Virus record (IMG/VR): IMGVR_UViG_3300027772_000952
Location: 1 to 44,844 of that record
Origin: a virus
Lineage: Duplodnaviria > Caudoviricetes
Strand: one strand, 5' to 3'
DNA: 44,844 nucleotides
Shown: positions 7,075 to 40,272 of the stretch, piece by piece
Layout: every line of letters begins with the position of its first letter
How positions within the stretch are numbered: position 1 is the first letter of the stretch
Made by a program: the position numbers and the translations under genes
Notes under the pieces: generated by a model
What the model was told of the DNA's origin: nothing
The model's input: the letters and a program-made list of their open reading frames with translations, nothing else
Database searches by the model: none

Positions 7075-9519
7075 TTAAATGGCAGCAAAGTCTTTAATGG
7101 TTATTGCGCCCACCATTGTTCCGTGATTTTGACAAATGTATCTAAATGTACCTGAAACACTAGCAGGTATTTTCCAGTACAGTGTGCCTGAAACTTTACC
7201 TTGAGCGGCAGATCCGGTACTGACTACACCTGCGGTGCTTACATGTATTAGATTCGCAGTGGTAATATTTGTGCTGTCTTGCTGAAGTAAAAACGGATGA
7301 CTGGCGCCTTGCTGGAGGTTGAAAGCTATGGTAGTGCCACTGATAGCATATATTGCAGGATTGTCTCCTGAATATTGATCAATATTATAATTGAATACCG
7401 GTGTTGTGACTACTAACATTGTGATTGCAGGCAGATAAATTTTGTCTACTGTGAGGCTTGAACTTGTGGCATCCGATAGTCCGGCAAATGTTGATGCGCC
7501 TGACGATCCAGCACTGCCAGTATAACCTAGTGATCCAGCACTGCCAGTGTAACCTGAACTCACAGGGCCAATAAACAACCAAGTATCTGTAGCTGTCTTT
7601 ATTAAGGTACCTGCAGAGTATTGATTGATTAATGCCAAACTGCTGTTTGCTGCGGAGATTGTAACTCCGCCAGAGCCTGCTATTAATAATCCACCTGAGC
7701 CAGCAGTTGATACATCAATACGTTGTCCTACAGCAAATGGCACAACAGAATCTAATGGCACTGTTACTGTTAGGATACTAGAACTAGTAAATCTAACCAG
7801 CTTGCCAACGTCCGTAGCTTGTAGAGTATATGATACAGTTTGATCGTTAATTTCCTGTACAGATCCAAAACCACCTATTGACCCAGTGTAACCTATTGAC
7901 CCAGTAAAACCTGCACCTTGGCTGCCAGTAAAACCTCTTGATCCAGAAAAACCTGAGCTAGCCGGTCCAATAAACAACCAAGTGTCAGTGTCCATTTTTA
8001 CCAACGTTCCCGTTGCGTATTGATTAAACAATGCTAGACTTGCATTTGAAGCTGAGACAGTAACACCACCTTCGCCTGCTATTAATAATCCACCTAAGCC
8101 GGCAGTTGAAACATCAATACGTTGTCCTACAGCAAATGGCACGACTGAATTTAATGGCACTGTTAGGGTTAACGTACTAGCACTGGTAAATCTAACTAAT
8201 TTTCCTATGTCGGTACTCACTAGAGTATAATTTGTAGTTTGATCGTTAATTGTTTGTATAGATGCAAAACCACCTATTGATCCAGTATATCCCTGTGATC
8301 CAGTAAAACCTGCACCTTGGCTGCCAGTAAAACCTCTTGATCCAGAAAAACCTGAAGTTGATGGACCAACTAGGTTCCAAGTATTTGCACTAATTTTAAT
8401 TACTGATGCTGCAGAGTATTGATCTACAAGATATAAGGCACCGCCTGCTGCGGAGATTGTAACCCCACCTGCGCCTGCTATTGACAAATACCCCGTGCTG
8501 GCTAACTGTAGATCAATACGCTGACCTACTGAGAAATTCAATGTACTGTCATTTGGTATTGTAACAGTGATGTTGCCAGCATAAGTAAAACGCACCATGT
8601 TACCGCCATCACCTGCAAGCAGTGTATAACTGGCTGTAGATACTGTGGTAAAACTCTGTAGAGAATTAAATCCACCAACCGAACCAGTATAACCCAATGA
8701 GCCTGCATATCCTTGCGATCCAGTATATCCTATGGCTGCATAAGTTCCAGGAATACCCTGCTCACCTTGTGAACCTGTAAATCCAATATCACCTTGGCTT
8801 CCGCTAAAACCTACTGCTGCATATTCGCCCGGCAAGCCTCTAGATCCCGTGTAGCCAAGAGCTGCATACTCACCTGGAATACCTTGGCTACCTGTATAAC
8901 CTTGACTGCCTTCACTTCCTGTGTAGCCTAGTGCGGCAAATTCTCCTGGCTCACCTTGACTGCCAGTATAACCTACTGCTGCAAATGCACCTGCAGGACC
9001 TTCGCTGCCAGTATAACCTAGATCACCTTGTGAACCAGTGTAGCCTTGTCCTGCAAATTCTCCTGCAATACCTCGACTTCCAGTAAATCCTATTGATCCA
9101 GTGTAACCATCTCGTCCAATAAATCCGTCTGCACCTGCTGATCCAGTGAATCCTATTGAGCCAACAACCCCTTGACTACCTGTATAGCCTTGAATTTGTC
9201 CAACATCTGACCAAGTATTTCCGGTCCATACCCATAAATTACCTGTATCCCTAGCAATATATCCATCACCAAGATTACCACTGTAGGGATCAGGTAATCC
9301 CGAAGATGAAGCTACAGAACCTACAATGGTAACTGAAGTTCCAGCAGGTCCTCTAGATCCTGTAAATCCGATTGATCCTGTAAATCCTGCACCTTGACTA
9401 CCAGTGTAACCAATAGTAGTAGATATTGCTTTCCAAAAGCGACCGTTCCATACCCAAGTACGATCTTCAAACGTGTACTGTGTATCAACTGCGGGTAATA
9501 GGGGAAAATTTAATGGCAT
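7075..9519 (-). CDS. collagen-like fibre protein with three repeated beta domains and a C-terminal cupredoxin-like domain
   Basis: G[YF]TGS Gly-X-Y tracts; three copies of YTL-x3-D-x-G-x2-VRFT...GQRID...W; C-terminal HPF...YICQNHGTMVG. Confidence 0.8.
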   Translation of the reverse strand: MPLNFPLLPAVDTQYTFEDRTWVWNGRFWKAISTTIGYTGSQGAGFTGSIGFTGSRGPAGTSVTIVGSVASSSGLPDPYSGNLGDGYIARDTGNLWVWTGNTWSDVGQIQGYTGSQGVVGSIGFTGSAGADGFIGRDGYTGSIGFTGSRGIAGEFAGQGYTGSQGDLGYTGSEGPAGAFAAVGYTGSQGEPGEFAALGYTGSEGSQGYTGSQGIPGEYAALGYTGSRGLPGEYAAVGFSGSQGDIGFTGSQGEQGIPGTYAAIGYTGSQGYAGSLGYTGSVGGFNSLQSFTTVSTASYTLLAGDGGNMVRFTYAGNITVTIPNDSTLNFSVGQRIDLQLASTGYLSIAGAGGVTISAAGGALYLVDQYSAASVIKISANTWNLVGPSTSGFSGSRGFTGSQGAGFTGSQGYTGSIGGFASIQTINDQTTNYTLVSTDIGKLVRFTSASTLTLTVPLNSVVPFAVGQRIDVSTAGLGGLLIAGEGGVTVSASNASLALFNQYATGTLVKMDTDTWLFIGPASSGFSGSRGFTGSQGAGFTGSIGYTGSIGGFGSVQEINDQTVSYTLQATDVGKLVRFTSSSILTVTVPLDSVVPFAVGQRIDVSTAGSGGLLIAGSGGVTISAANSSLALINQYSAGTLIKTATDTWLFIGPVSSGYTGSAGSLGYTGSAGSSGASTFAGLSDATSSSLTVDKIYLPAITMLVVTTPVFNYNIDQYSGDNPAIYAISGTTIAFNLQQGASHPFLLQQDSTNITTANLIHVSTAGVVSTGSAAQGKVSGTLYWKIPASVSGTFRYICQNHGTMVGAITIKDFAAI

Positions 9520-9544
9520 TTTAGTAGTATAAAGTAATCATATG

Positions 9545-9552
9545 TATTTATA
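9545..9552 (-). promoter_or_regulatory. full T4 late promoter consensus TATAAATA
   Basis: TATTTATA on the + strand, 25 nt upstream of ATG 9519. Confidence 0.7.
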
Positions 9553-9634
9553 GTTAGTTAAAATGTCAAACCCATAGATAGGTGCTTTATCAAAAACTTG
9601 TGGGGTGTACCAACTTTTTTGCTTTATTTATGAC

Positions 9635-12505: not shown

Positions 12506-12516
12506 AATATTTCCTA

Positions 12517-12750: not shown

Positions 12751-12762
12751 TGATTATCCTTG

Positions 12763-14328: not shown

Positions 14329-15639
14329 TTAAATATTTAAAATGTAGTATTTGAGGCCACTACCGGCACTGCCAGTAAATCCTATAGAGCCTGTGTAACC
14401 ATCACGTCCTATTACTCCGTCTACACCAGCAGATCCAGTGTATCCTAAACTTCCAGTATATCCTGCTCCACTCGTGGTGATTTCAACCCACTGCACTGTG
14501 TCACCATCGTCAGTCCACACAAATTCAAAACCCAATGACGAATCATACCATCTATCTCCAGCTGTAGGATTTAATGGAGGTGTATCTGAATAGGTAAATG
14601 AACTTTCGCCGCGACTACCAGTGTAGCCAACTGAACCAGAGTATCCAATTGCTGCTGCTTCTCCAGGAAGTCCGCGACTACCAGTGTAGCCAAGTTCGCC
14701 AGCACTACCCGTGTAGCCTACAGCAGCATAAGCACCATCGACACCTTGACTACCAGTGTATCCAACTGAACCAGTATAGCCCACTGAACCAGAGTATCCA
14801 ATTGCTGCTGCTTCTCCAGGAAGTCCGCGACTACCAGTGTATCCAACTGAACCAGTAAATCCTATAGCAGCATATTCGCCAGGAACACCTTGCGATCCTG
14901 TAAATCCTGCACTGCCTACTGATCCAGTATAGCCTAAAATACGACCAACGTCATTCCATGCTGATCCAGACCATACCCATAGGTTCCCTGTGTCCTGTGC
15001 AATGAATCCATCACCTTGGTTTCCAGTGTATGCAGGATCTAATCCTGAGCTTGTAGAAACTTGTCCAACAATGTTTACTGAAGTTCCTGCAGGGCCTTCG
15101 CTGCCAGTATACCCTAAGTCACCAATTGATCCTGTGTAGCCTTGGCGTCCTAGAAATCCACTAGCAGCTACTTCAACCCACTGTGCAGTATCACCATCGT
15201 CAGTCCATACTAGTTCTGCACCAGTTAGACTGTCCATCCATCTATCACCAACTTGTGGATTTATAGGAGCAGTTGGTCCGTAACTAAAACTACTTTCACC
15301 TTTGCTACCACTAAATCCACGGCTTCCAACAAATCCTTCTGTACCTCTACTTCCAGTAAAGCCACGACTTCCAGTAAATCCTAACGATCCAGTAAATCCC
15401 GCACCTCTTGATCCTGTAAATCCCTGACTACCAGTAAATCCAACTGATCCTGTTAATGATGTTACTGTAGACCACGATCTAGCACCTACGGTGGTACTGA
15501 CTAATACCTGTCCATCAATAGATGGTAAGCCAAGATCTGGTTCTGCATTTCCTACATCAAGATAGCTACCGCGATTAGGATCTAATGCTGCACCAGTTAG
15601 CTTTTTTACTCTACCGCTAACTAGACGGCTTTTACTCAT
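14329..15639 (-). CDS. collagen-like G[YF]TGS fibre protein (436 aa; start moved to MSKSR)
   Basis: ATG 15639 with GGAG RBS; Gly-X-Y tracts and two GDRW-x-DS...WTDDGDT-x-QWVE knobs. Confidence 0.8.
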   Translation of the reverse strand: MSKSRLVSGRVKKLTGAALDPNRGSYLDVGNAEPDLGLPSIDGQVLVSTTVGARSWSTVTSLTGSVGFTGSQGFTGSRGAGFTGSLGFTGSRGFTGSRGTEGFVGSRGFSGSKGESSFSYGPTAPINPQVGDRWMDSLTGAELVWTDDGDTAQWVEVAASGFLGRQGYTGSIGDLGYTGSEGPAGTSVNIVGQVSTSSGLDPAYTGNQGDGFIAQDTGNLWVWSGSAWNDVGRILGYTGSVGSAGFTGSQGVPGEYAAIGFTGSVGYTGSRGLPGEAAAIGYSGSVGYTGSVGYTGSQGVDGAYAAVGYTGSAGELGYTGSRGLPGEAAAIGYSGSVGYTGSRGESSFTYSDTPPLNPTAGDRWYDSSLGFEFVWTDDGDTVQWVEITTSGAGYTGSLGYTGSAGVDGVIGRDGYTGSIGFTGSAGSGLKYYILNI

Positions 15640-25007: not shown

Positions 25008-26999
25008 TTAGGCCCTCACTGTTAAGTCTAACAAATCGTAGTAGCCTAGACCTGTGTCGTAAGAGATGTAGATAGCAGCATTAACATCATCGTAATAATA
25101 ATCTCCTGGTTTTAAATCACTTAGGCTTAACCCGTTGGCAGCATCTGCATTTGTGTACATTCTTGATGCTGCTGATATCTGTGTTGATCCATCTGGAAAT
25201 GTTAGCAGTCCATCTGCGCCTATTGTTATGTTTGCAAAGCTAACACTGCTGGCAATGTTTAAGTCTTGATCGGCTCCTGGACCTGCTGACCCAGTATAAC
25301 CTACACTACCATTGTAGCCGATGACACCGTCAACGCCTTTGCTACCAGTATACCCTGCAACACCGTCAACGCCTTTGCTACCAGTATAGCCTAATGAACC
25401 ACTGTAACCAACAACACCCTGTGATCCTGTATAACCTATACTGCCAGTATAACCATTCAATACAGTTCCATTTGGGCTAATAAACTGTATGTTGTTTTGA
25501 GCATCAACTGTGATAGAAACAGTGCCAACTTTAATAGAATCAACAACAATACCTTGCGGAGATCCTGATGATGTGGTAACTGTTAACTTTCCTGAGTTAT
25601 CAACAGATAGCAGTGTGCCGCCTAGATCAATAGTCTGTCCTGCTATGTATAACTTGCCAAATCTATTAGTAGGGGATCCTAAGTCTTGTAGTCCGTTAGT
25701 TTCTGGAATAAACTTAAATCCGGACGATAATGTTACGGTATTGGTAGCATTAGTAGTAAGTCCTTCACCAAAGCTTCCAGTATAACCTATGTCACCCTGA
25801 CTACCTGCAAATCCTCTTGATCCAGTAAATCCATCTTCACCTCTTGATCCAGTATATCCAATATTGCCTTGACTTCCGGTATATCCAATATCTCCTCGAC
25901 TTCCAGTATATCCAATATCGCCTTGACTTCCTACAAATCCTGCACTTCCAGAGTATCCACGACTACCTGCATATCCCTCGCTACCTGCATAACCGCGGCT
26001 ACCTGTGTAGCCTAGTGATCCACTATAACCTTGACTGCCATCATAGCCTTGACTACCTACATATCCAGTATCTCCAAATGATCCAGTAAATCCATTTTCA
26101 CCTCTTGATCCAGTGTAGCCGGTGTTACCAAATGATCCAGTAAAACCTTTGCTTCCGTGAAATCCAATACTGCCGGTATATCCTATATCGCCTTTTGATC
26201 CAGTATATCCTATATCGCCTATACTACCAGCATAACCCTTATCACCTATACTACCCACAAAGCCTGTAGGTCCACGCTCCCCATCACGGCCCTGACTACC
26301 TGTAAATCCTTTATCACCGTTGCTTCCAGTATATCCTTGATCTCCAAATGATCCTGTAAAACCTGCTTCACCTTTATCACCTTGTGATCCTACATATCCT
26401 GTGCTTCCTAAAAATCCACGGCTACCAACAAGACCAACTTCACCTTTTGATCCGGTAAAACCTACAATGCCTTGCGATCCAGTGTAGCCAATATCACCTC
26501 TTGAACCAGTGTAACCTGTATCCCCAACGTCTCCACGACTGCCTACAAATCCTACACTACCTCTTGCGCCGATATCGCCCTGGTCGCCTTGAATGCCGCG
26601 GCTACCTGTATAACCTATACTACCTTGTATACCCTGTTCACCTGTATTTCCTGTTGATCCAGTATATCCTGTATCGCCTTGAATACCTTTTTGCCCTGTG
26701 GCCCCTGTGGCACCATGACTGCCAGTATATCCTAACTCGCCTTGGATGCCTTTACTGCCTGTGTATCCTAAAAAACCAAAGTCACCTTGACTACCTACAA
26801 ATCCAGGTTGACCTTGGCTACCTACAAATCCGCGTGGTCCGGATCCTGAACTGTTAATAGGATTTCCACCAGGTGTGACGCCATCACTTAGGCGTAATTC
26901 CCCAGTGTCTACGTTAAAAAAGATTGTTCCCGGTTCGCCTACAAACTGTTCAAAGTCAAATTTGACTAGGCCGGCGGAGATTTTACGGAGATCTGACAC
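25008..26999 (-). CDS. collagen-like fibre protein (663 aa)
   Basis: GEPGTIFFNVDTGELRLSDGVTPGG N-terminal module; long nearly uninterrupted Gly-X-Y tract; DLGSPTNRFGKLY fibre motif; AAGGA RBS, GTG start. Confidence 0.85.
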   Translation of the reverse strand: MSDLRKISAGLVKFDFEQFVGEPGTIFFNVDTGELRLSDGVTPGGNPINSSGSGPRGFVGSQGQPGFVGSQGDFGFLGYTGSKGIQGELGYTGSHGATGATGQKGIQGDTGYTGSTGNTGEQGIQGSIGYTGSRGIQGDQGDIGARGSVGFVGSRGDVGDTGYTGSRGDIGYTGSQGIVGFTGSKGEVGLVGSRGFLGSTGYVGSQGDKGEAGFTGSFGDQGYTGSNGDKGFTGSQGRDGERGPTGFVGSIGDKGYAGSIGDIGYTGSKGDIGYTGSIGFHGSKGFTGSFGNTGYTGSRGENGFTGSFGDTGYVGSQGYDGSQGYSGSLGYTGSRGYAGSEGYAGSRGYSGSAGFVGSQGDIGYTGSRGDIGYTGSQGNIGYTGSRGEDGFTGSRGFAGSQGDIGYTGSFGEGLTTNATNTVTLSSGFKFIPETNGLQDLGSPTNRFGKLYIAGQTIDLGGTLLSVDNSGKLTVTTSSGSPQGIVVDSIKVGTVSITVDAQNNIQFISPNGTVLNGYTGSIGYTGSQGVVGYSGSLGYTGSKGVDGVAGYTGSKGVDGVIGYNGSVGYTGSAGPGADQDLNIASSVSFANITIGADGLLTFPDGSTQISAASRMYTNADAANGLSLSDLKPGDYYYDDVNAAIYISYDTGLGYYDLLDLTVRA

Positions 27000-27345: not shown

Positions 27346-28545
27346 ATGATAGATAAAACTCCCTTTGAAACTCTAATAGCAGATCTTAAAGCCAACGGCA
27401 AATATCGTGTGTTTAACGATATTCTGCGTGAAAACGGCAAGTTCCCTAGGGCCATTTGGTATGGACCGTATGCTATTAAAAACATTGTAAACTGGTGTAG
27501 CAACGACTACTTGGGCATGGGTCAGCATAAGGTTGTTATAGATGCCATGCGTACGGCATTAGATATGACTGGAGCAGGATCAGGCGGTACTCGCAACATT
27601 GCAGGTACCAGTCACTATCACGTGGCACTTGAGCACGAGCTTGCAACCCTACACAAGAAAGAAAAGGCATTGCTATTCTCAAGTGCTTATGTAGCCAACG
27701 AGTGGACATTAATTGCACTGGCCAAGATTATTCCCAACATTGAATATATCAGTGACAGTAATAATCATAACTCAATCATTGTGGGCATACAGCACAGTCG
27801 TGCTAACAAACAGGTCTTCCGTCACAACGATATGCAGAACTTAGAAGAGTGCCTACAGGCTGCACAACTATGCGGCAAGACTCCTTGTATTGTATTTGAG
27901 TCAGTGTACTCAATGGACGGTGATGTGGGTATGATCCGAGAGATATGTGACCTTGCTGACAAGTACGGTGCTATAACTTACATTGACGAAGTACATGCTG
28001 TTGGCCTATACGGTGCAACAGGTGCAGGCAAAGTTGAGCATCACGGACTACAAGATCGTGTTGATATAATCAACGGTACACTTGGTAAAGCATTTGGAGT
28101 ACAGGGTGGATACATTGCCTGTGACTCAGTGGTAGTTGATGCTATCCGTAGTATTGCTGCTGGCTTTATCTTTACAACATCTATGAGTCCCGTGACCTGT
28201 GCTGGTGCCCTGGCTGCTGTCAAATACCTAAAGAGTCACGGAGAACTACGTGAGCAACATCAAGATCGTGCTCGCAAGCTAAAGTATAGATTGATTAAAG
28301 CTGGCATACCCGTTATGGCGTGTTCAACTACCCACATTGTACCTGTGCTGGTTGGAGATGCTAAACGTGCTAAGGCTATGAGTGATGCACTAATGAATGA
28401 CCACAACATCTATGTGCAGGCCATCAACTATCCCACAGTAGATGTGGGAACGGAGAGGTTGCGATTTGCTCCCACTCCGTTTCACGATGATGGTATGATT
28501 GAGGATCTTGTTCAAGCCCTCGTCACTGTGTTTAACACATACTAA
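27346..28545 (+). CDS. hemA: 5-aminolevulinate synthase (PLP-dependent, C4/Shemin pathway)
   Basis: [40 protein letters not shown] (PLP lysine), [16 protein letters not shown]-x2-GTERLR; these are ALAS-specific rather than BioF/Kbl. Confidence 0.95.
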
Positions 28546-28765: not shown

Positions 28766-29095
28766 TTATTTTACTCCTAACTTTTCTAACTTAATGATTA
28801 TTTGTATTTTTGTTTCATTTCAGCAACTTCACTGCGAAGGTACTCAAAATCTTTTCTCAATAACTCAAGGTCAGCAGTATTGCGGCCCGGTTGCTTTATA
28901 TAGCTTGCAAATCTTTCATCTGATATTTTTATAGAATGTTCTAGATCTGCAATTCTAGTCTGTGTAGTAAACACATACCAACTGGCAATGACAATAGCAC
29001 TAACTACAGAGATCAAAGTCTTTAAGGGAACAGTAACTTCTGTCTTTTCATCTATTTGCACTGCCATTTACTTTACTCCTAACTTCTCTAACTTA
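28763..29095. repeat. 31-nt direct repeat (28763-28793 / 29065-29095) flanking the 89-aa gene
   Basis: 29/31 identical; minus strand TAAGTTAGA[G/A]AAGTTAGGAGTAAA[G/A]TAAATG. Confidence 0.9.
28798..29067 (-). CDS. single-pass membrane protein with C-terminal coiled coil
   Basis: LISVVSAIVIASWYVF transmembrane segment followed by a heptad-like region. Confidence 0.75.
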   Translation of the reverse strand: MAVQIDEKTEVTVPLKTLISVVSAIVIASWYVFTTQTRIADLEHSIKISDERFASYIKQPGRNTADLELLRKDFEYLRSEVAEMKQKYK

Positions 29096-29793
29096 CTAAT
29101 ATAGTTGGCCATTAGGTGATCAAACACACCGATAAACTTTTGCCCTTTTGCTCTGGCTTTCATTCTACTGCGAGCCATGTCCTTTACTCGCTGCCACGGA
29201 GTTAAGTTTCTAAACTCACCGTAGTAGTTCATATACACATGTGTGCCATGATGATCAAATCCCATAGCTCTAAATGGAACTTTGGTTACATCATCGCAGT
29301 TGTTCTGTACTCTATAGTGTTCAACAGCTAAACTCTTAACAAACTCTGCATTGCCAACTCTTGGCGAACCAAATGTTACCAATGCTGTAACACGATCCTG
29401 CATACGACTGGCAGCTATAGTGGCCATGGCAGCACCAAGACTGTGTCCAGTTACATATAGGTTACCTGGATTGTCTGCTAACACTTTAGAGATAGTGGGC
29501 CATAACTTGTTGATTTCACCTTTGAATCCAACATGCACTTTGCCACCACAGGCTTCTAGATTCTTACCAGACTTTAGGTCTGCTAATATATCTGACTTTT
29601 CAGTTACTTCAGTGCCTCTAAATGATAACACTGTGATTGTACCGTTGGTCAATAGATATGCTTGAGCACCGTCTATGTCAAAGAATTCAACGATAGAGTA
29701 GCCCAGTGCTTTAAACTTGGCCTTTGATGTTTTAGGATTGTCATAGGTAGTTTGCGCTATGTTGGCAAACTCTAATAGTAGTTCTGTCTTCAT
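29068..29793 (-). CDS. class 3 lipase
   Basis: SFRGTE, VHVGF, VTGHSLGAAMA, TFGSPRVGN, DDVTKVP and a C-terminal DH. Confidence 0.93.
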   Translation of the reverse strand: MKTELLLEFANIAQTTYDNPKTSKAKFKALGYSIVEFFDIDGAQAYLLTNGTITVLSFRGTEVTEKSDILADLKSGKNLEACGGKVHVGFKGEINKLWPTISKVLADNPGNLYVTGHSLGAAMATIAASRMQDRVTALVTFGSPRVGNAEFVKSLAVEHYRVQNNCDDVTKVPFRAMGFDHHGTHVYMNYYGEFRNLTPWQRVKDMARSRMKARAKGQKFIGVFDHLMANYISKLEKLGVK

Positions 29794-30639: not shown

Positions 30640-30645
30640 TATTTA
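30640..30645 (-). promoter_or_regulatory. late-type promoter TAAATA overlapping the upstream stop codon
   Basis: TAAATA, then AAGGA RBS and ATG 30618. Confidence 0.55.
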
Positions 30646-31896
30646 GCGACTGAAGTAGTAATCTCCGTCGGGTCCGTAGTCACAGAAGCAACCAGCGCAT
30701 TTCCAACCCTGCTGCTCCATAAATGCAATAACTGTGTCTTTTAACGGAGCACCTGCATTGTATTCAGTTACCTGTAATTCTAATATAAGATGTTTTAATT
30801 CACTAAATGTAGCCAATGCGCCTTTTACAATGTCCATTTCTGCACCTTGTACATCTATTTTAACTAGATCAGGCATGGGCCATTGTCTAGTAGCTACAAC
30901 TGTATCCAATGTTGTTTGTGTTAATCCCGTAGGCTGATATAAGTGCGGATAGGCAGTTTCTCTATACACGCTAGATCCTGCAGGATGTTCTGGGTTTTGA
31001 TAAAAATGTTTAACAACTCCATCCTTGTCGCCTAACAGCCCAATATGGTATTTGGTATCTGATGCTTTATAGAACGTCTCTAGTTCTGCCACTGCTTCAA
31101 ATGCATAGTAGTCAGCTTCAGGCCATAGCTCTTTGGCTTCTTTGGTCCAGTGTAGTACACATGCACCTATGTCATAAACTACCTTAGGTGCTATGCCCAT
31201 TTGTTTTAGGTACTTGAGAAAGTTAGTGTGTTCAGCAGGAAATAATCTTTTCTCAGCTAGTAACTCATAACTAGTCCTAGTGTCTTCTTTGTAACCCTGT
31301 CCCACTTTAAATGTCCATGAGCCAGTATGACTGCAGAGTATGCTAGGATCAGCATATATCTTAAATCCTTTACGACGAGCTTTGATACAAAAGTCTGTGT
31401 CTTCTGACACTGTGTATCTATGATCTAATGCGGAGTGATACTTAAAGTATGGATAGCCAATAGCCTTAAAGACTTCTGTCTTGACTAACACACAGCCAAA
31501 ACCGCAGCCCACGACTTCAGTTAGACCATTGCCTCTTAATTTGGCGTAGTCCATATGAGTAGAGCCGCCTGTAGCAGTTGGCTCATATATTTCTAGTATG
31601 TGTTCGCCTGGCTTGCGTTGTATGTATAAGCCACTGACCATGTCTACCTCATGTGCCAACAGCTTCTTCAATGTGTCTGGAGCAAACGCAATGTCACTGT
31701 CTACACTGAATAGATAGTCGTAGCCTTTAACTACCCAATCTGCAATTAGGTTGCGTACTTGATCTACATTGTATCCATAGAAGTACTGGAACTCAGTTGT
31801 GTATCCTTCTGGCACCTGTAGATCATAGATACTTTTAAAAGTATCTGGCTCTATATTACGAGCCGTTGGTATTGCTATTAGTATTCTTTTTGGCAT
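30643..31896 (-). CDS. GT-A (GT2-like) glycosyltransferase fused to FkbM-family methyltransferase
   Basis: N-half FSVDSD, GFGCVLV, SEDTDFC; C-half YDIGA...AFEA...TTLD...KIDVQGAE. Confidence 0.85.
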   Translation of the reverse strand: MPKRILIAIPTARNIEPDTFKSIYDLQVPEGYTTEFQYFYGYNVDQVRNLIADWVVKGYDYLFSVDSDIAFAPDTLKKLLAHEVDMVSGLYIQRKPGEHILEIYEPTATGGSTHMDYAKLRGNGLTEVVGCGFGCVLVKTEVFKAIGYPYFKYHSALDHRYTVSEDTDFCIKARRKGFKIYADPSILCSHTGSWTFKVGQGYKEDTRTSYELLAEKRLFPAEHTNFLKYLKQMGIAPKVVYDIGACVLHWTKEAKELWPEADYYAFEAVAELETFYKASDTKYHIGLLGDKDGVVKHFYQNPEHPAGSSVYRETAYPHLYQPTGLTQTTLDTVVATRQWPMPDLVKIDVQGAEMDIVKGALATFSELKHLILELQVTEYNAGAPLKDTVIAFMEQQGWKCAGCFCDYGPDGDYYFSR

Positions 31897-33943
31897 TTAA
31901 TATTTTACTTGCTGTAATTGTTTGTTCACGACCGTTTATTTTGTAGTCGTTGAGAGGATTGATATCATTGTAGTTGACCACAACATCTTGTATTGCCAGT
32001 ACCTTAGCTGGGTCTGCACGTTCTAGTAGTGCATAGAATACAGCTATGTCTCCGCCTGCACGATACCATTCGTCTCCATCTTTGAACTCACTGTCGTCTA
32101 TACCATTTAATAGATACTTTCTAAATGTGCGGAGGTGTGTATATGGGACATTCCAATTGAACTTGTGATTCCTGTACTGCTTAGTTTGTTTGATAATCTC
32201 TGGATAGGGCTGTGCAATCAAAGGAATGTTATCAACCATTGACCAACAGCTACCGTAGGTAAATTCTGTATCTCCATGATAGATAGTATTGTAGTAACTG
32301 AGTATTGAGTTGTCATTGACTAGACTATCATCGCCATCTAGGATCATAATGATAGCTTGATCAATACAATCACGGAACACATCTATTTGATTGTGTACTG
32401 CTCCTTTGCGTTCAATGTTGTCAATTATAATTATTTTCTTTTGTATGTCCTGCGGCAATGATTGTATATACTCTGTAATTACACCCATAGTGTTATCTGT
32501 AGAGCAGTCATTGACTAGCAGCATTTGCCAACGACCGTAATCTTGTGTAGCTACTGACTCTATACACTGTCTAATATATTTTTCACAATTCCAAAATGTA
32601 CTAACAATCACAATAGGTTGTTCGTTGCCTGCTTTGTAATTTTCCAACTCTACAGTATTATGGAACCTACGTCCGTATACTTTGTGCAGACGTTTGTTTA
32701 TCAGTGATACTTGTCTGTACTCATCTCTGCTTAGATATTGGCCGCATTGTTTAAAGATGTGCTGTTTCCATTGTAGAGCAACTGCATCCCAACCACTCCA
32801 ACCTTTAACAATATTACAATAGTACTTCTTCTGTTGATGCAGATAAGGATTGTTGTATGCTTCGACTACCGTGCCAACAAACTTTTCAATCTGTTCAGGA
32901 TAATTGATATTAGGGAATAAGCCGTTAGGTTGTATAGCATAGTCTATCATATAGCAGGCCTCTGCTAGAGCTGTTTCCTCTAGTGCGCCAAATCTGCAGG
33001 TAATTACAGGAGTGTTATACAACAAACTTTCTAGTGTGGATATACCATAGGTCTCAGGAAAGGCAGCAGGGTATATCATAAAGTTAGCTTTAACTAGTAT
33101 CTCAGCAATATCCTGTTGTGATATGATGCCCGTAAACTCTATATCTAGCTCTGCGTTCTTGGGATCGTCTGCCATAACTCGCCAGTCACGCTCTTGTTGA
33201 TCAGGGCCATCCTGTTGACTAAAACGATAGTAGCCACCAATGACTTTTAATTTGGCAGTAGGAATCCATTTTTTAACATGCGGCCAAATATGTTTAACTA
33301 GGGGTATCATGCCTTTGGTAACACTAGCATTATAAACAAACAAGTCTTTGTCTTTGGCTTCTACATTAACATCTGATACCCATTGTCTAGCACCATTGCG
33401 TGTGATAAACATTTTACGTTTAAGCACTTCATAGTTACGTTTGTGTCCGTGATCACAGTTAGTAACGTAGTTTAAATGCCAGTCACTAAGTGTGAATACA
33501 TCTGTGATGCGATCTGATATTACCAACTGTTCTATCAGTCCGTCACCTAGGCAGAAGGTATCATGCATCCATAGGATGCGCATCTTTGCCTGTGCTAATA
33601 TACGATTGTAAAGGTCCATAGGCAGAAAAGGCATAGCACGATTGTCACCTATCTTTGCGTAGTCTTCAGTGGCCACAAAAGGTATAACTGTGCGGCTGCT
33701 GATCACTACGTCAAATTGCCAATCTTCATTTAGTCTATCTAACGGAACATATGTGACCTTGTCATATACTCCTGGACTGGCATGATCTGTGTTGCATCTA
33801 TTGAACACCGTAACATCAAATCCCAGCTTGGCTAACTCCAGTGCGTTTAGAGTAACAGCACTTTCTGAGCCGCCCAGTCCCTGTTTGAACACTGTGGTTC
33901 CATCGTAGGGTATTCCGATAATATCAATAATAGCAATTTTCAT
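31856..33943 (-). CDS. bifunctional glycosyltransferase (GT-B/GT4-like plus GT2)
   Basis: GLGGSE, WMHD, ETYGISTLE (E-x7-E); then STFWN...CIESV...VNDCSTD...LDGDD. Confidence 0.88.
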   Translation of the reverse strand: MKIAIIDIIGIPYDGTTVFKQGLGGSESAVTLNALELAKLGFDVTVFNRCNTDHASPGVYDKVTYVPLDRLNEDWQFDVVISSRTVIPFVATEDYAKIGDNRAMPFLPMDLYNRILAQAKMRILWMHDTFCLGDGLIEQLVISDRITDVFTLSDWHLNYVTNCDHGHKRNYEVLKRKMFITRNGARQWVSDVNVEAKDKDLFVYNASVTKGMIPLVKHIWPHVKKWIPTAKLKVIGGYYRFSQQDGPDQQERDWRVMADDPKNAELDIEFTGIISQQDIAEILVKANFMIYPAAFPETYGISTLESLLYNTPVITCRFGALEETALAEACYMIDYAIQPNGLFPNINYPEQIEKFVGTVVEAYNNPYLHQQKKYYCNIVKGWSGWDAVALQWKQHIFKQCGQYLSRDEYRQVSLINKRLHKVYGRRFHNTVELENYKAGNEQPIVIVSTFWNCEKYIRQCIESVATQDYGRWQMLLVNDCSTDNTMGVITEYIQSLPQDIQKKIIIIDNIERKGAVHNQIDVFRDCIDQAIIMILDGDDSLVNDNSILSYYNTIYHGDTEFTYGSCWSMVDNIPLIAQPYPEIIKQTKQYRNHKFNWNVPYTHLRTFRKYLLNGIDDSEFKDGDEWYRAGGDIAVFYALLERADPAKVLAIQDVVVNYNDINPLNDYKINGREQTITASKILNAKKNTNSNTNGS

Positions 33944-33948: not shown

Positions 33949-33977
33949 ATTATATATACGTTGCAGGTCTAAGTCAA
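33949..33977 (-). promoter_or_regulatory. sigma70-type promoter (leaderless)
   Basis: TTGACT-17-TATAAT, 5 nt before ATG 33943. Confidence 0.75.
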
Positions 33978-33984
33978 CAGCTAA

Positions 33985-34404
33985 TTAGAAACTGTTATTG
34001 AACCAACCTACTTTTCTGCCTTCAGCAATGCGTTGATCATACGCGGCAACAGAGCTAGGAAAACGCCAAGCCCAAATAGCGACAAGTCCCATAAAAATTG
34101 CGGTACTGATAATTCCAATTGGTTTTACTCCTGTAAAAAACATAATGATCAAACTTGTTGTCATCATAGCTAACATAAAGTATTTCATCTTTAGAGGAAA
34201 CACACGCTTCTCGCTCCAGTTGGTTAGGAAAGGCCCGAACAGTTTATGATTATATAACCAACGATGCATACGTTCGTTACCCTTGCTAAAGCAATAGGCA
34301 GCAAACACTACAAATATTGAGTAGGGCAAGCCAGGAGTGATTACTCCAATGTAGGCCATGCCTAAACTTAAAAATCCTAATACATTCCAAAATATCTTTT
34401 TCAT
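33985..34404 (-). CDS. ybaN: YbaN/DUF454 family inner-membrane protein (start MKKIF)
   Basis: LG-x2-G-x2-PGLP-x3-F...CF-x-K...HRWL-x-NH-x2-FGP; ATGA overlap with the radical SAM gene. Confidence 0.85.
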   Translation of the reverse strand: MKKIFWNVLGFLSLGMAYIGVITPGLPYSIFVVFAAYCFSKGNERMHRWLYNHKLFGPFLTNWSEKRVFPLKMKYFMLAMMTTSLIIMFFTGVKPIGIISTAIFMGLVAIWAWRFPSSVAAYDQRIAEGRKVGWFNNSF

Positions 34405-35267
34405 GCTATTCCCCAACTTCCTTTGCTCTTGTGAGCTTGTAGATCAAATCCATTCTTACACTGTATCTTAGGGCAAGGATAAGGTTGTTGATCAAGTATG
34501 ACATCTTTAGTAAACACATTACCTAATGACCTGTTACTCTTGCACCATCCTCTATAGACATAACCAAAGTTGTCAATGACTATCTGATTATATCCTGCCC
34601 AACACAGGTGTCCATAATAGTTGTTCAAATGATTGACTCTCTTGAATTCTATTGTTGTTTCAACCTGTTGCTGATTAGTTACATCAATGCCTTTCTCAGC
34701 ATAGTATTCAGCCCACTGGTCGTCTGAGTATTTAAGATACTGATCGTTGCCCTTGCTGAAATTTGAGTAGAGTAATTGCAGTACAGTATGTGGATGAAGT
34801 TCTTTAAGTTGCCTGTAGGCCTGCATGCCTTCTGCCCATTTGTCTGGAGTAATAGCCACATAGACTTTTAGATCAGTAGTGCGAGCAATAGTTGTTACTT
34901 GTTTAAAATGCTCTAGGTCTGTGTGCAGATGATATGTTAGTATAAGTCCATACATAGATCCTATAACTTCTTCCCACCAAGCAACATCACTTTGGCCGTT
35001 AGATACCAGTTTGAATCTAACATTAGTATTCTTACTGTCTAGTATAGTTTGTTTAAGTGCAGGACTTTGTGTAGGTTCTCCACCTGAGAACTCTATCTGC
35101 ACACAAGAAAAGGCCCGGGTCTGCTCAACTAAATGAGCGAAGGCCGGGCTGAATTGTTCAATGGGTGGAAAAGGATTAGCACCGTTCTTTAATTCCCAGT
35201 AGCAATAACTGCAATCTAGATTACAGCTATTTCCTAAATTCCAATCTATAGTTAAAACATCGTTCAC
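34401..35267 (-). CDS. radical SAM protein with C-terminal SPASM/twitch-like cysteines
   Basis: CNLDCSYC, FSGGEPT, SNG; LCWAG...GWC...CPKIQC. Confidence 0.9.
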   Translation of the reverse strand: MNDVLTIDWNLGNSCNLDCSYCYWELKNGANPFPPIEQFSPAFAHLVEQTRAFSCVQIEFSGGEPTQSPALKQTILDSKNTNVRFKLVSNGQSDVAWWEEVIGSMYGLILTYHLHTDLEHFKQVTTIARTTDLKVYVAITPDKWAEGMQAYRQLKELHPHTVLQLLYSNFSKGNDQYLKYSDDQWAEYYAEKGIDVTNQQQVETTIEFKRVNHLNNYYGHLCWAGYNQIVIDNFGYVYRGWCKSNRSLGNVFTKDVILDQQPYPCPKIQCKNGFDLQAHKSKGSWGIA

Positions 35268-35776: not shown

Positions 35777-35813
35777 TTTTGGTAATCATTTCTTTTTGTA
35801 TGAAACAGCTTGT

Positions 35814-35842
35814 ATTATACAGCCATTTTGTAATTTAAGCAA
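35814..35842 (-). promoter_or_regulatory. sigma70-type promoter
   Basis: TTGCTT-17-TATAAT upstream of HNH-rSAM-ybaN. Confidence 0.7.
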
Positions 35843-36383
35843 GTAGATTTTGAACGAATTCCGTACCAGATTGCTCAATTGACTGAGTCCATTGGTCCTG
35901 GCCGTCTAAGGCAAACACACTATTATGATTTGGTGTAGCCAAAAGCCAACTAAAGTCGTGATTGTAAGGTGCAACGCCTTTGAGTTCGCTTTCTAATTGA
36001 TCCGGAGCCCATGCACATAACCCTAATGCTAGTCTCCAATGCATTGGACAATCACCCATTGCTAGTCTTTGTAACAGCTCATGACTAGAACTAATACTAA
36101 ACTCATTGTTGATGTGCATGGTATTGTTGCAGGTCCATTCTGATGAGTGTATTAAGGTAAGTGCTTTGACATTTACCGGGCCACCTACATATATGAATCC
36201 TTCAATGTCACATTCTATATTACACTGTTGGGCAAACTCTCTAATAGGCATTTTAGATTTCTTGTTTAACACAAGACCCATGCTGCCGCGGCTGTGATTC
36301 TCTGTGACAAATGTCACAGTCTTCTGCCAAAAGTTTCCTCTTACATTAGGAGGAGCAATTAAAAGTTTACCAGTTAAATTCAT
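35835..36383 (-). CDS. YqgE/AlgH (DUF179) family protein
   Basis: GKLLIA-x-P, GSMGLVLNK, YVGGPV, G-x2-AW-x3-QLE-x-E, W motif. Confidence 0.9.
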   Translation of the reverse strand: MNLTGKLLIAPPNVRGNFWQKTVTFVTENHSRGSMGLVLNKKSKMPIREFAQQCNIECDIEGFIYVGGPVNVKALTLIHSSEWTCNNTMHINNEFSISSSHELLQRLAMGDCPMHWRLALGLCAWAPDQLESELKGVAPYNHDFSWLLATPNHNSVFALDGQDQWTQSIEQSGTEFVQNLLA

Positions 36384-37273
36384 TATGCAAATCGTTGTAT
36401 AGAACCTTTTACGTCAGCGACAGTAATAGTTCCATCTTTATTTTTATCCAAACCTTTATTTTGTTTGTATACCAAATCACTACTTAGGTTTGTGCCTGGT
36501 ACCTTCCCACCACCCTGTTTTCCTAATACAAAGTCATCTGGATAACCAACAAACTTAGGCATAAACACTGCCATATATAGATCACCTAGATCCATTCCTG
36601 GCTTAACGCCTACCATTTTAAAATACTTATAGACATAGTCTAATTGTTCAACTGCAGACATTGTTCGCAATGCTTCTACACTAGTTCCTAATGATCTAGC
36701 AGTATCCGGCATAAACTGTATAAGTCCAGTAGCCCCTGACTGTTTGTTAACAGCCGATGGATCAACTCTAGACTCCATTTTCATAATAGCTAATAAGTGG
36801 CTGCTTTCAATACCTAATGCATTAGCAATTTTATCTAACTTTTTATTGAAGTCAGGATCTTGTATTGCTTTAGTATCTATATTACTTGCACTAGGTGCTG
36901 CTTTAACATCTGCAGGTGTACTTTTAATTAGCTTGCTAGCAATATTAGGTTTAGATTTTAGAACGTCATTTAACTTAGCAACTGTTGCAGGTCCTGGATC
37001 GCCATCAACAGTTAGCCCGTTATCTGTTTGAAACTTCTTAACTGCATCCACAGTCTCTGGTCCACGGATCCCATCAACGCCATGCTTTGGTAATGCGTAA
37101 CCTAATGCAATTAACGACTTTTGTACATCAGCAACTTCTACGCCACGACGCCCTTTAGGAACATTAACTACGAAAGTTCCTAGATCCATCTTGTCTTTAA
37201 TTCGAGGAGCACCTGGTTCAGCATCTGCTGGACCAAACTTTTCATTTATTACGTTAAATTCATTAAATCTCAT
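36383..37273 (-). CDS. peptidoglycan-binding plus lytic transglycosylase (SLT-like) protein
   Basis: VDGIRGPETVDAVKKFQTDNGLTVDG PG-binding domain; MES (catalytic Glu), GATGLIQFMPDTA; DKNKDGTITVAD EF-hand-like tail. Confidence 0.9.
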   Translation of the reverse strand: MRFNEFNVINEKFGPADAEPGAPRIKDKMDLGTFVVNVPKGRRGVEVADVQKSLIALGYALPKHGVDGIRGPETVDAVKKFQTDNGLTVDGDPGPATVAKLNDVLKSKPNIASKLIKSTPADVKAAPSASNIDTKAIQDPDFNKKLDKIANALGIESSHLLAIMKMESRVDPSAVNKQSGATGLIQFMPDTARSLGTSVEALRTMSAVEQLDYVYKYFKMVGVKPGMDLGDLYMAVFMPKFVGYPDDFVLGKQGGGKVPGTNLSSDLVYKQNKGLDKNKDGTITVADVKGSIQRFA

Positions 37274-37536: not shown

Positions 37537-37540
37537 ACTG

Positions 37541-37546
37541 TATTTA
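37541..37546 (-). promoter_or_regulatory. late-type promoter TAAATA (leaderless)
   Basis: TAAATA-CAGT-ATG; the TAA is the stop of hldD copy 2. Confidence 0.6.
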
Positions 37547-38359
37547 ACTGTTTAGCCAGTCTTCTACAGTAATCCATTGTTGCGGCCCAATAGTAGCCGT
37601 TAGTTTAGTTAGATCAGCACAGGTATATGCTTGATACCCTTGTTTAAGTATTTCAGGCATATCTATGTACTCTATTTGTGCGTTGGTTTTCTTAGCAATT
37701 AGCTGGGCAACATGCTCAAAACTAACAGCATTGCCTGTGCCCACATTCCACACGCCAGATTCTTTAACTTGTTTAATAAACTCTACATGGGTTCTGCATA
37801 CATCTTCTACAGCAATAAAGTCACGTAGGTAGCTATCACTGTTATGAAACAGCTTGATCTTACCAGATTCTGCTTGTCTGCTGAACTGGCTTACAGGGCT
37901 ACCTTGACTGCCTTTATGCCCTTCTTGATTGCCGTAAACATTAAAGTAACGAAATCCTTGCACAGTATTGCCGCCTTGATGTTGTCTATGATAGTATTCA
38001 CACAGATACTTGCTCCATGCATACGGTGTGCGTGGATCTGGCATGGCTGTTTCAGTAAAGTCTGTTCCTAGCCCGTATACACTGGCACTGCTGGAGTACT
38101 GTAGATTAACACCATATGTTTTACACGCATTGAATAGTTGTCTAGTAAAGTCTACGTTCTGGCGCATTATTTTGTCTAGGTCACGTTCAGTTGTACTGCT
38201 AATTGCACCCAAGTGAATGATCCAGTCCTGTTCCATTACACTGGGCATATTGCCGTCGTCCCAATCGTATAGATTTACATTCCAGTCTGTGTTATCATTG
38301 ATATACTGAACTAAATTTTGTCCAATAAATCCTTTGTGGCCAGTTACTAATACTCTCAT
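37544..38359 (-). CDS. hldD: ADP-L-glycero-D-manno-heptose 6-epimerase-like SDR, copy 2 (start MRVLVTG)
   Basis: GHKGFIG, HLGAISSTTE, SSSASVYG, YAWSK, RYFNVYG-x2-EGHKG, RDFI-x-VED, YQAYTCAD. Confidence 0.88.
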   Translation of the reverse strand: MRVLVTGHKGFIGQNLVQYINDNTDWNVNLYDWDDGNMPSVMEQDWIIHLGAISSTTERDLDKIMRQNVDFTRQLFNACKTYGVNLQYSSSASVYGLGTDFTETAMPDPRTPYAWSKYLCEYYHRQHQGGNTVQGFRYFNVYGNQEGHKGSQGSPVSQFSRQAESGKIKLFHNSDSYLRDFIAVEDVCRTHVEFIKQVKESGVWNVGTGNAVSFEHVAQLIAKKTNAQIEYIDMPEILKQGYQAYTCADLTKLTATIGPQQWITVEDWLNS

Positions 38360-39111
38360 TCCAATTCCTGCAAAGTTGGGGCATAGACTCCTAAATGTTG
38401 TACAGTAACCGCACTCGCTGTTATTGCAAATTGTATAGCTTGTTCTATGCTGGCAGTATTTACATAGCAGTAGGCCAGAGCAGATAAAAATGTATCTCCT
38501 GCACCACAAACATCGCTAACCTCTACTCGTGGAGCAGAGAATCGTTGACCATTACACTCTGCTCCATCAGGACCCAGTGTAACTATCATATTACTACACT
38601 TAGTTTTGATTTGACTAAACTCTAAACTATTGATCTTAACAATACATCCTTCTAGTCTTGCTAAGTCTGTTTTCTTTGTATCAACAAAGATAGGGCCACT
38701 GTAGTCTTTACGCAGTGATTCAATTAGTTCATAACTAACTGTGCCTTTATTGTAGTCACTGATCACAATGGCATCGTAGTTGTCTAACTTATAGGTAATG
38801 ACAGCACTGGATGAATGTACATCGTTGTCAATACGAACAATCTGTTGTTTACTACGAGTATCAATTAGCCTGGTCTTAGTACTGGTCTCACCATAGACTG
38901 CGTATACATTACATCCTAGTGCTACTAAGTTGTTGTAAACATTACCTGCCATACCTGGACGGCTTTCTTCATGTGAGAACTTAAACACAGGGACAGGTGC
39001 TTCGGGACTGATACGATCAACTGTGCCGTATTGATATACGTCTATACAGTTATCTCCGATCAATAATATCTTGTATTGTTTTTGTCGTTGAGTATGGTTC
39101 AATTCGGTCAT
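38356..39111 (-). CDS. hldA: heptose-7-phosphate kinase-like PfkB protein (HldE domain I)
   Basis: IGD-x3-D, RISPEAPVPV, G-x-AGNV, ISDYNKG, DVCGAGDTF. Confidence 0.85.
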   Translation of the reverse strand: MTELNHTQRQKQYKILLIGDNCIDVYQYGTVDRISPEAPVPVFKFSHEESRPGMAGNVYNNLVALGCNVYAVYGETSTKTRLIDTRSKQQIVRIDNDVHSSSAVITYKLDNYDAIVISDYNKGTVSYELIESLRKDYSGPIFVDTKKTDLARLEGCIVKINSLEFSQIKTKCSNMIVTLGPDGAECNGQRFSAPRVEVSDVCGAGDTFLSALAYCYVNTASIEQAIQFAITASAVTVQHLGVYAPTLQELE

Positions 39112-39454
39112 AGTATATTACTTTAGTACAATATTGATGTGCGGTAGACTCTGTATCATGTTTCCAGTCACTGCCTTTAACGTACACATCTGGTTTGTAT
39201 CGTTCCATTAACGTGATTAGTTCTTCCTTGCTATCAAAGATCTCTACAATGTCCACAGCCTTAAGATTACTCAGCATGATCCTGCGATCGTTTTGATTGT
39301 TGATAGGACGATCTTTGCCTTTGAGTTCTTTAACACGACGGTCTGTATCAATAGCCACAATGAGATGATCACCGTAGCTACGTGCAGTGTTCAACAAGGC
39401 AACATGCCCAGGGTGAAGCACATCAAACGTTCCGTTAACCATTACTGTCTTCAT
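39050..39454 (-). CDS. hldC: heptose-1-phosphate nucleotidyltransferase-like (HldE domain II; start MKTVM)
   Basis: NGTFDVLHPGH, KGKDRPIN, PDVYVKGSDW, YSTT. Confidence 0.82.
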   Translation of the reverse strand: MKTVMVNGTFDVLHPGHVALLNTARSYGDHLIVAIDTDRRVKELKGKDRPINNQNDRRIMLSNLKAVDIVEIFDSKEELITLMERYKPDVYVKGSDWKHDTESTAHQYCTKVIYYDRIEPYSTTKTIQDIIDRR

Positions 39455-40272
39455 TCTAGATCCAACCATTCATATACATTTAGCCACTTGCGTTTGCCTA
39501 TTGTCTCTTTTAGATGCTTAAGGTTAGCACAGGTCTTTTGACGGAAGCGCGGTAACTCTGCGTCGGGCATAGGAATATGACGGATCTCTACACCTTCTTG
39601 TTCTGCAATAGCTTCTGCGATATCTAAGAATGAGTGTGATAGTCCGCTGCCTACATTCCAAATGCCACTGCCAACTACAGTTGTCATAAAGTCTAATTGT
39701 AAGCGGCACACATCTCCAACCCATGTCCAGTCACGATAGATGTGTTCAGCATTGTCCCACACTTCGATAAAGCCATCCTTCTTAGCCTGTTGGCGCCATT
39801 TGTAGATAGCATTAGCACGACGACCTCTAAGGTGCATCCATTTTCCATAACAGTTATGGTATCTAAATCCTTGCACCATTATGTGTTGTTCTTGTTGAAA
39901 GACCCAACGATCAAATAGATACTTGCTCCATGCGTACGGAGTTTGTGGGTAGCAGGGCGCATACTCACTAGTGTCTTTAGTATTGCCGTAGACGCTACTA
40001 GAACTAGCATACTGTAGGTGTACGCCGTGTTTGTTACATTCATTGAATAGACGCTGACTGAACTCTAGATTTTGATGTAGTACTTTGTCCACATCCGTTT
40101 CGGTCATGTCTGCAATGGCACCCAGGTGTATGACCCAGTTATAGGTTCGAACATCAGGAAATTCGTTAGGGTTCCAGTCCCACCCATCTACTTGCCAATC
40201 AGGTTGTTGGCTCAGAAAGGCTGACATGTTCTTACCAATGAAGCCCGAGGCTCCTGTTATTAACACTTTCAT
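39451..40272 (-). CDS. HldD-like NAD-dependent epimerase/SDR, copy 1 (divergent)
   Basis: GASGFIG, HLGA, ASSSSVYG, YAWSK, RDWTWVGD, NVGSG; lacks the HKG motif. Confidence 0.8.
   Translation of the reverse strand: MKVLITGASGFIGKNMSAFLSQQPDWQVDGWDWNPNEFPDVRTYNWVIHLGAIADMTETDVDKVLHQNLEFSQRLFNECNKHGVHLQYASSSSVYGNTKDTSEYAPCYPQTPYAWSKYLFDRWVFQQEQHIMVQGFRYHNCYGKWMHLRGRRANAIYKWRQQAKKDGFIEVWDNAEHIYRDWTWVGDVCRLQLDFMTTVVGSGIWNVGSGLSHSFLDIAEAIAEQEGVEIRHIPMPDAELPRFRQKTCANLKHLKETIGKRKWLNVYEWLDLE

Follow-up and report, generated by a model that had tools for sequence, protein, structure and literature searches.

Enzymes that glycosylate collagen-like proteins, or the virion proteins of a virus, have been described in several systems, and we compare with them here a linear 44,844-base viral fragment from IMG/VR (IMGVR_UViG_3300027772_000952; the whole stretch is referred to as the window), which encodes collagen-like proteins rich in the motif G[YF]TGS together with a GT4-GT2 / GT-A-FkbM glycosyltransferase (GT). 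In C. difficile, SgtA O-GlcNAcylates the Thr of collagen repeats, and Ser-containing peptides too (PMC7157674). A064R of chlorovirus PBCV-1, in which several GT domains follow one another and a sugar O-methyltransferase ends the chain, acts on a virion glycan, and Mimivirus L230 is a collagen lysyl hydroxylase/glucosyltransferase that modifies the virus's own Pro-poor collagen-like proteins (both in PMC9614988). Mycobacteriophage GTs glycosylate their own virion proteins (Freeman 2023, as cited in PMC12619734). The EPclA phage collagens of E. coli O157 are Pro-rich at X, 22% charged, without Tyr or Phe, and stable unglycosylated; Pro and charge are named there as what stabilises phage and bacterial collagens that are unmodified (PMC3368898). 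The peptide (Gly-Pro-Thr)10 folds only if galactosylated, in an article that also refers to Riftia (PMC11923368).

Our reading of the window, to which we give a probability of roughly 0.6, is that the phage encodes the O-glycosylation of its own predicted collagen fibres, with a sugar other than heptose. Judging from its genes, such a system would work like SgtA-BclA3 and be built like A064R, yet would belong to neither of these families, nor to BAHT or PLOD. In the SgtA/BclA3 system, too, a dedicated GT encoded near a collagen-like gene O-glycosylates repeat hydroxyls, as predicted here; SgtA, however, is a single GT2 with a tetratricopeptide repeat (TPR), uses UDP-GlcNAc and acts on a spore protein, whereas here there are three GT domains with FkbM, a phage and G[YF]TGS, and no TPR family was detected in the Pfam scans of the window GT or of three fused relatives. 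A064R is likewise a virus-encoded multidomain protein with several GT domains and a methyltransferase in one chain, as in the fused relatives of the window enzyme (in the window it is split in two genes); the likeness is by domain layout only, as A064R extends capsid-protein N-glycans in an algal virus and has GT34-like and novel domains. L230 resembles the predicted system in that a virus modifies its own Pro-poor collagen-like proteins, whereas it acts on hydroxylysine; here no hydroxylase domain was found in the Pfam scans of the window GT and its fused relatives, and Lys makes up 2.6% of Y residues. The mycobacteriophage GTs modify capsid and tail-tube subunits at their C-termini, whereas collagen repeats are the acceptors proposed here; the available part of the Moraphage paper (PMC12619734) yielded no mention of collagen or heptose, and Moraphage is not shown to be of the window's lineage. 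EPclA are also collagen-like phage fibre proteins, from which the window collagens differ in being low in Pro and charge and rich in Tyr/Phe.

The repeat proteins and the glycosyltransferase

The window sequence is present in freshwater and lake runs of many studies, 15 runs holding at least half of its words, of which two may be its source. It is syntenic with a complete 383-kb record with a T4-type Gp23 capsid gene (G001), and thus we infer that it is a piece of a T4-related jumbo phage of ~350 kb.

Six window genes, all on the minus strand (Table 1), hold 143 G[YF]TGS motifs, compared to 0.23 expected from composition, and the plus strand holds none. Since the motif is written in 95 different 15-nt encodings, the repeat is maintained at the protein level. 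Over the 573 window triplets, X is Ser in 36%, Tyr in 18% and Phe in 13%, and Y is Thr in 27%, with Gln and Arg next commonest; of all X and Y residues, 2.8% are Pro, 8% are charged and 35% are Ser or Thr. The preliminary description, made from the sequence without database searches, had correctly reported many such repeats with little Pro. Its aromatic residues at X and Thr at Y are indeed there, although the commonest X residue is Ser, and the two short repeat proteins that it listed are really long ones (956 and 748 amino acids) with short repeat patches. Pfam Collagen (PF01391) scored above its cut-off in the four motif-rich genes. The longest unbroken Gly-X-Y run, 120 triplets in 25008-26999, would be ~100 nm long as a triple helix, and further runs of 70 and 62 triplets were found in the sequences read; many runs are short, with interruptions of the GAG and EYAA[LV] types. 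ESM Atlas matches for the window collagen were all below 0.9.

The GYTGS proteins probably sit on the virion, since they carry fibre-type domains (Mtd_N, He_PIG and tail-fibre PHROG matches) and since, in the relatives G015 and L467, the repeat genes adjoin neck-type genes, which is the usual T4 fibre position; we take these to be neck genes by eye, not by family scan. The collagen is split in two of the window proteins by a 48-residue knob module (GTSV-IVG-V...GNLWVW-G--W-DVG), at residues 60-107 in 7075-9519 and about 184-231 in 14329-15639, and a knob-like stretch is also visible in the 2242-residue protein and in relatives. Next to the cluster, 4479-7049 (minus strand) encodes a Gly-rich protein of 856 amino acids that has three repeated modules (phrog_4474, PF21722). 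Two GYTGS occur in it, within GGAGGYTGS turns, and the protein is likely a polyglycine-type fibre tip, not collagen.

The three GT domains that had been noted in 30643-33943 were confirmed, GT4 and GT2 in one gene and GT-A in the next. In the GT4 domain (PF13692/PF00534 above cut-off), E297 and E305 are invariant in 16 aligned rows, as is D536-G-D-D in the GT2 domain (PF00535, E 2e-17). The GT-A domain gave a weak Pfam match and PHROG 1574 at E 2e-21, and its gene had no significant match in the PDB by sequence. The model of 31856-33943 (predicted local distance difference test 85) matches the fold of MshA/BshA/PimA. In most relatives both halves are in one chain of 900-1590 amino acids, sometimes with extra GT or methyltransferase domains. 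An assembly artefact was ruled out as the source of the split, as two independent DNA contigs cross the junction with no difference; five identical loci also end the GT at 695 amino acids, and the shorter homologues found are mostly contig-end fragments. The GT4 domain is duplicated in G007 (L446:10966-15051), G009 and G014, and the GT of G010 has extra GT2 and methyltransferase domains, which suggests that glycan length may vary among relatives.

No close relative of this GT family was found among 50,697 GenBank phage records, and only 2 contigs of the 185,579 prokaryote genomes in GTDB carry it, the longer of which is phage-like; its only appearance in public databases is as an unassigned protein from uncultured phages. 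The literature yielded no account of GYTGS collagens or of the GT family, subscription papers and supplements being outside reach.

Co-occurrence and predicted timing of the glycosyltransferase

A triple-repeat DNA pattern identified 165 loci from 18 of the 64 parts of IMG/VR, in which about 470 stretches carry the triple repeat and 414 the GT. Behind loci L003-L182, 40 records were picked by length, 39 of them searchable, comprising all records of at least 100 kb, most of 60-100 kb and three shorter ones. Two control sets consisted of all 22 records of at least 50 kb among 80 hldA loci, and of 14 capsid-selected fragments.

A full-length GT (best E <= 8.5e-150) was detected in 30 of the 39 GYTGS-selected records, or about 25 distinct ones after dropping the same phage and identical hits. 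Among records of at least 100 kb, the GT was present in 14/18 with arrays versus 0/16 without (Fisher p 2e-6), and the third GT domain likewise; among records at least 79% complete, it was present in 5/5 with at least 47 motifs versus 0/7 without motifs (p 0.001), or in 5/7 versus 0/7 if G013 and G016 are counted (p 0.02), all of these p-values ignoring kinship and fragment incompleteness. The hldA-selected records (n=22) had no GYTGS array, apart from one single motif match, and no full GT, apart from one weak partial hit; one of the capsid-selected fragments had an array and none had the GT. GT-negative records had 0-3 Pfam Collagen matches each (14 examined), i.e. almost no collagen of any kind. 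In the opposite direction, arrays were found in 6/9 GT-selected records of at least 50 kb, the three without being only 14-20% complete, and a GTDB contig found via the GT alone had 85 G[YF]TGS motifs beside it.

The pairing occurs in three lineages, namely the ~350-kb clade, G003 and T4-like phages of ~165-210 kb, and on the capsid tree the records with both GT and array are interspersed with negatives. The GT directly adjoins a GYTGS gene in G003, G015 and L467, and lies within about 10 kb of the array in 8/14 records (hand-entered upper bounds). Its side and orientation with respect to the fibre genes vary, and clade members bearing other fibres lack it. Thus, the counts support that the GT tracks the GYTGS repeats over records and lineages, and that the single system proposed from the window splits in two: of the expected co-occurrence of GYTGS proteins with hld and GT genes, the part on the GT held, and the part on hldA (5/39) did not.

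L467 (CAZIWB010000010.1) is a 201-kb contig in a Cellvibrionaceae metagenome-assembled genome, carries neck and fibre genes of T4 type along with GYTGS collagens and a fused GT, and is probably a phage contig within the bin. Other Pro-poor collagen dialects were also seen, GTQ/GSQ/GIQ in the complete 197-kb T4-like phage G013 (L469/L470) and GAT/GPT/GFT, with 103 triplets, in the probable giant virus G016 (L471:11003-15433).

Several points weigh against a functional link between enzyme and repeats. In 6/14 records the GT is more than 10 kb from the array (hand-entered upper bounds), and four GYTGS records of at least 100 kb lack it. One is G013, which is complete and has 11 motifs in mostly GTQ/GSQ collagen; another is G016, with 9 motifs, GAT/GPT collagen and no Gp23 hit, which looks to us like a giant virus; the remaining two are incomplete, G006 at 64%, with 40 motifs, and G005 at 54%. 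A 60-kb fragment with 6 motifs (G082) also lacks the GT. Of the negative sisters, G042 is only 55% complete and G048 only 37%, the three sister pairs on the capsid tree fall below the star threshold, and transfer as a block could also account for the co-occurrence. Among solved folds, the nearest are GT4s acting on small molecules and lipids, with 11-16% identity, which are uninformative on the acceptor.

Upstream of the window GT there is a sigma70-type promoter-like site, from which a leaderless early transcript is predicted. Such a pattern precedes 23/39 distinct GT relatives, chosen by hand to begin with ATG and to have sufficient upstream sequence, versus 22/998 other open reading frames (ORFs) and 0/33 GYTGS ORFs, and the site scan overall gave no more sites than in shuffles. 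Early expression of the GT from a host-type promoter is likely, which counts against our reading insofar as it also fits action on the host surface or on DNA. An argument from late promoters was dropped, as the window shows no enrichment of ATAAATA (10 versus 12.7 expected); TAAATA precedes 13/33 GYTGS ORFs versus 200/998 others (p 0.014), a weak hint. The RNA run X15 covers all 30 window bins at flat low depth, as contigs, and is thus uninformative on transcription.

The conserved promoter is the main evidence for the strongest alternative, that the GT alters the host envelope (the lipopolysaccharide O-chain or capsule) early and is linked to the fibres only via a shared mobile host-recognition island. 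Such a role has been published for GTs of pelagimyophage host-recognition clusters (PMC7029224), and the best family and structure matches of the GT are envelope-glycan enzymes (TuaG, EpsE, TagF and chondroitin polymerase). We nevertheless consider it unlikely, since it leaves unexplained why one GT family tracks one repeat type over three capsid lineages, sits on either side of the fibre genes and in varying orientation, and is missing where clade members have other fibres, and since the family is nearly absent from prokaryote genomes.

Candidate acceptor residue, heptose genes and proposed mechanism

In the context G[YF]-a-G-b-x-G, a is Thr in 142/193 window cases (74%) and b is Ser in 188/193 (97%). 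Over the 3,122 distinct contexts of all loci, a is Thr in 63%, Val in 9%, Ser in 7% and Ala in 5%, and b is Ser in 93.5%, the loci being partly chosen on GYTGS, which inflates Thr and Ser alike. The presence of Val in place of Thr suggests that shape may matter at Y. Since the Ser at the exposed X position is more fixed than the Thr at Y, it would be at least as good a candidate acceptor; the earlier emphasis on Thr at Y is thus weakened, Thr being often swapped for Val, Ser or Ala and the Ser two residues on being near-fixed.

The same frequencies bear on the possibility, to which we give still less weight, that the GYTGS helices are stable unmodified and that the GT targets another virion protein or DNA. 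Other residues, Val, Ala and Ile among them, stand in for Thr at Y in about 30% of the distinct contexts, and Gln and Arg are next in rank at Y. Aromatic axial pairs stabilise designed collagen peptides, and here amide-pi and cation-pi pairs in Q/R-G-Y/F, the beta-branching of Thr/Val, trimerising domains and cold lake water might do so together. Phage GTs, one of them adding heptose, are known to glycosylate DNA (bioRxiv 10.1101/2023.12.21.572611). An unmodified helix, however, would predict neither the GT-repeat co-occurrence nor the near-invariant exposed Ser, and next to the GT, in the window and the regions read, we recognised no methylcytosine dioxygenase, cytosine methyltransferase or other DNA-modification gene, whole genomes not being searched.

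The preliminary description had proposed that the fibres are glycosylated, possibly with O-methyl-heptose, by phage machinery that takes in the hld genes and two FkbM methyltransferase domains, and had cited AAH/TibC, which use ADP-heptose, as a precedent. The gene order hldD-hldC-hldA-hldD was confirmed; the heptose models are the best hits of all four genes, all below cut-off (hldA 153/345, hldC 126/181.5, the two hldD 226 and 177/274.6), and the catalytic motifs are intact. That phage-made ADP-heptose is the donor, so that the fibres carry heptose or O-methyl-heptose, nevertheless seems to us very unlikely. In the window, 3.6 kb separates the cassette from the GT, hldA is about 0.7 kb from a fused GT in G008, and a Gram-negative host could provide ADP-heptose without phage genes. 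On the other hand, hldA was found in only 5/39 GYTGS records, one being the same phage (3/18 of those of at least 100 kb), and hldD-like genes in 3/18 large GYTGS records versus 9/10 large hldA-selected records. The syntenic G001 has 109 motifs and the GT and no hldA, and G015 has neither hldA nor hldD. Arrays were absent from all 22 hldA-selected records and from 4/4 hld-bearing cultured cyanophages, and one huge phage had none either. A flank-only look at the 80 hldA loci gave 0 motifs, a weak test because in the window, too, over 10 kb separates the hld genes from the repeats. No gmhA or gmhB was found in the 45-kb window fragment, and hld-bearing relatives had gmhA in 0/5 and a weak gmhB in 2/5. 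A GT9-like gene (T4-GC 302 type, weak PF01075), not in the window fragment, would be a better candidate user of ADP-heptose, as it tracks hldA (6/8 near-complete hldA-positive versus 0/4 hldA-negative records, p 0.06). Coupling of heptose to the repeats was thus rejected, and heptose is removed from the GT-repeat module.

The autotransporter heptosyltransferases Aah/TibC of E. coli (BAHT) O-glycosylate Ser-rich repeats in an adhesive fibre, which is only proposed here, and belong to the TIGR04414 family. Neither window GT gene matched TIGR04414, nor did any of the five complete GYTGS genomes, and the window GT folds are GT4 and GT2; a TibC/Aah relationship was rejected. Both FkbM domains exist, but the second lies almost wholly past 40272, the end of the system as first drawn, and it was also rejected as a part of the module, since a true orthologue occurs in 1/34 records, one without repeats.

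The hld genes are a separate cassette, a known cyanomyovirus cluster uncoupled from the GYTGS genes. As in the T4-GC 302-308 cassette of P-SSM2, S-CAM1 and S-SSM7, genes hldC-like, hldA-like and epimerase are in the same order near fibres, and the window hldA-like product is 41% identical to its P-SSM2 counterpart; the window differs in having two epimerases and, within the fragment, no flanking GT9-like, carbamoyltransferase or cupin gene, and those phages lack GYTGS repeats. In a freshwater jumbo phage, L269:4917-12744 has the T4-GC 302-308 layout, with the hld cassette and GT9-like, carbamoyltransferase, GmhB-like HAD and cupin genes among fibre genes.

That the repeats form another Gly-rich fold, a polyglycine-II bundle or beta-solenoid, possibly still glycosylated, is suggested by the very low Pro and the many short interrupted runs, and is highly improbable in view of the unbroken runs of 120, 70 and 62 triplets, the Pfam Collagen scores and the best PHROG matches, which are collagen-bearing tail fibres.

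Under the reading that we favour, glycosylation of the phage's own fibres, the repeats would form collagen triple helices on the virion, and the enzyme would add short, likely methyl-capped O-linked chains to the Ser and/or Thr of G[YF]TGS, one GT domain initiating the glycan, the others extending it and FkbM capping it. The donors would probably be host nucleotide sugars rather than hld products. Made early from a host-type promoter, the GT would be at hand while the late fibre chains are being made and have yet to fold. The glycan may make up for the scarce Pro and charged pairs, and/or mask the fibre. Perhaps, as a tentative and rather doubtful extension, these phages have a further way to stabilise a collagen that has hardly any Pro and few salt bridges, in which the GT recognises the G-[YF]-T-G-S hexad and the hexad also acts as a structural unit, the sugar on the fixed Ser (or Thr) stacking on the Tyr/Phe of a neighbour chain, such that folding of the 100-nm helix needs nascent-chain glycosylation and the virion bears hundreds of methylated glycans per fibre.

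For the O-glycosylation of phage fibres in an abundant group of uncultured freshwater phages, such a system offers a defined enzyme together with a candidate acceptor of six residues. It makes testable whether Thr glycosylation occurs on unfolded chains and drives triple-helix folding, a question stated as open in PMC11923368, and could be a hydroxyproline-free route to recombinant collagen.

Features and other genes of the window

Table 1. Positions of the repeat, glycosyltransferase, promoter-like and heptose features in the window
Feature	Position	Strand	Description
Collagen-like fibre protein, 814 aa	7075..9519	-	24 G[YF]TGS; one 48-aa knob insert; three repeated globular modules; PF01391 E 1e-21; phrog_8780 minor tail E 6e-42
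Predicted structural protein, 956 aa	9635..12505	-	4 G[YF]TGS; N-terminal 8-triplet GYTGS patch; Gly-rich C-terminal part; phrog_2295, phrog_3904
Collagen-like fibre protein	14329..15639	-	20 G[YF]TGS; knob insert; ATG at 15639; PF01391 E 8e-28; phrog_819 tail
Tail-fibre-like protein, 748 aa	15975..18221	-	1 G[YF]TGS, short patch; Mtd_N domain (PF18454); phrog_17885 tail fibre E 2e-85
Fibre, 2242 aa	18252..24980	-	11 Ig-like domains (He_PIG) followed by about 265 Gly-X-Y triplets with interruptions; 68 G[YF]TGS
Fibre, 663 aa	25008..26999	-	26 G[YF]TGS; 120 unbroken triplets, residues 54-413; PF01391 E 5e-63
GT-A domain + FkbM methyltransferase	30643..31896	-	VDSD at 65; TIGR01444; C-terminal half of fused enzyme in most relatives
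GT4 + GT2 glycosyltransferase	31856..33943	-	GT4 motif E297-X7-E305; GT2 DGDD 536-539; nearly virus-restricted family
Sigma70-type promoter-like site	33949..33977	-	TTGACT-17-TATAAT, ends 5 nt before GT ATG; predicted leaderless early transcript
hldD-like, second	37544-38359	-	Best NCBIfam TIGR02197, below cut-off
hldA-like	38356-39111	-	Best NCBIfam TIGR02198, below cut-off
hldC-like	39050-39454	-	Best NCBIfam TIGR02199, below cut-off
hldD-like	39451-40272	-	Best NCBIfam TIGR02197, below cut-off
Stand-alone FkbM methyltransferase	40269..41336	-	Not part of the GT-repeat module

Between the fibre cluster and the GT, and antisense to them, 27346-28545 (plus strand) encodes a full-length 5-aminolevulinate synthase (TIGR01821, 575 bits, above cut-off). 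This haem-pathway auxiliary gene was present in 2/5 relatives tested (G044 and G047) and in 15/80 hldA loci; the C4 route of 5-aminolevulinate synthase would point to an alphaproteobacterial host. A class 3 lipase is encoded at 29068-29793, and a radical SAM protein at 34401-35267, whose best match is a viperin-like model, far below cut-off. These are followed by an AlgH/DUF179 gene (35835-36383) and a lytic transglycosylase with PG-binding and SLT domains (36383-37273), and a D-Ala-D-Ala carboxypeptidase-like gene lies at 44375-44803. A perfect TTGACA-17-TATAAT with a second overlapping site (43944-44006, minus strand) is upstream of an unannotated operon (42652-43845), which leads into the FkbM and hld genes.

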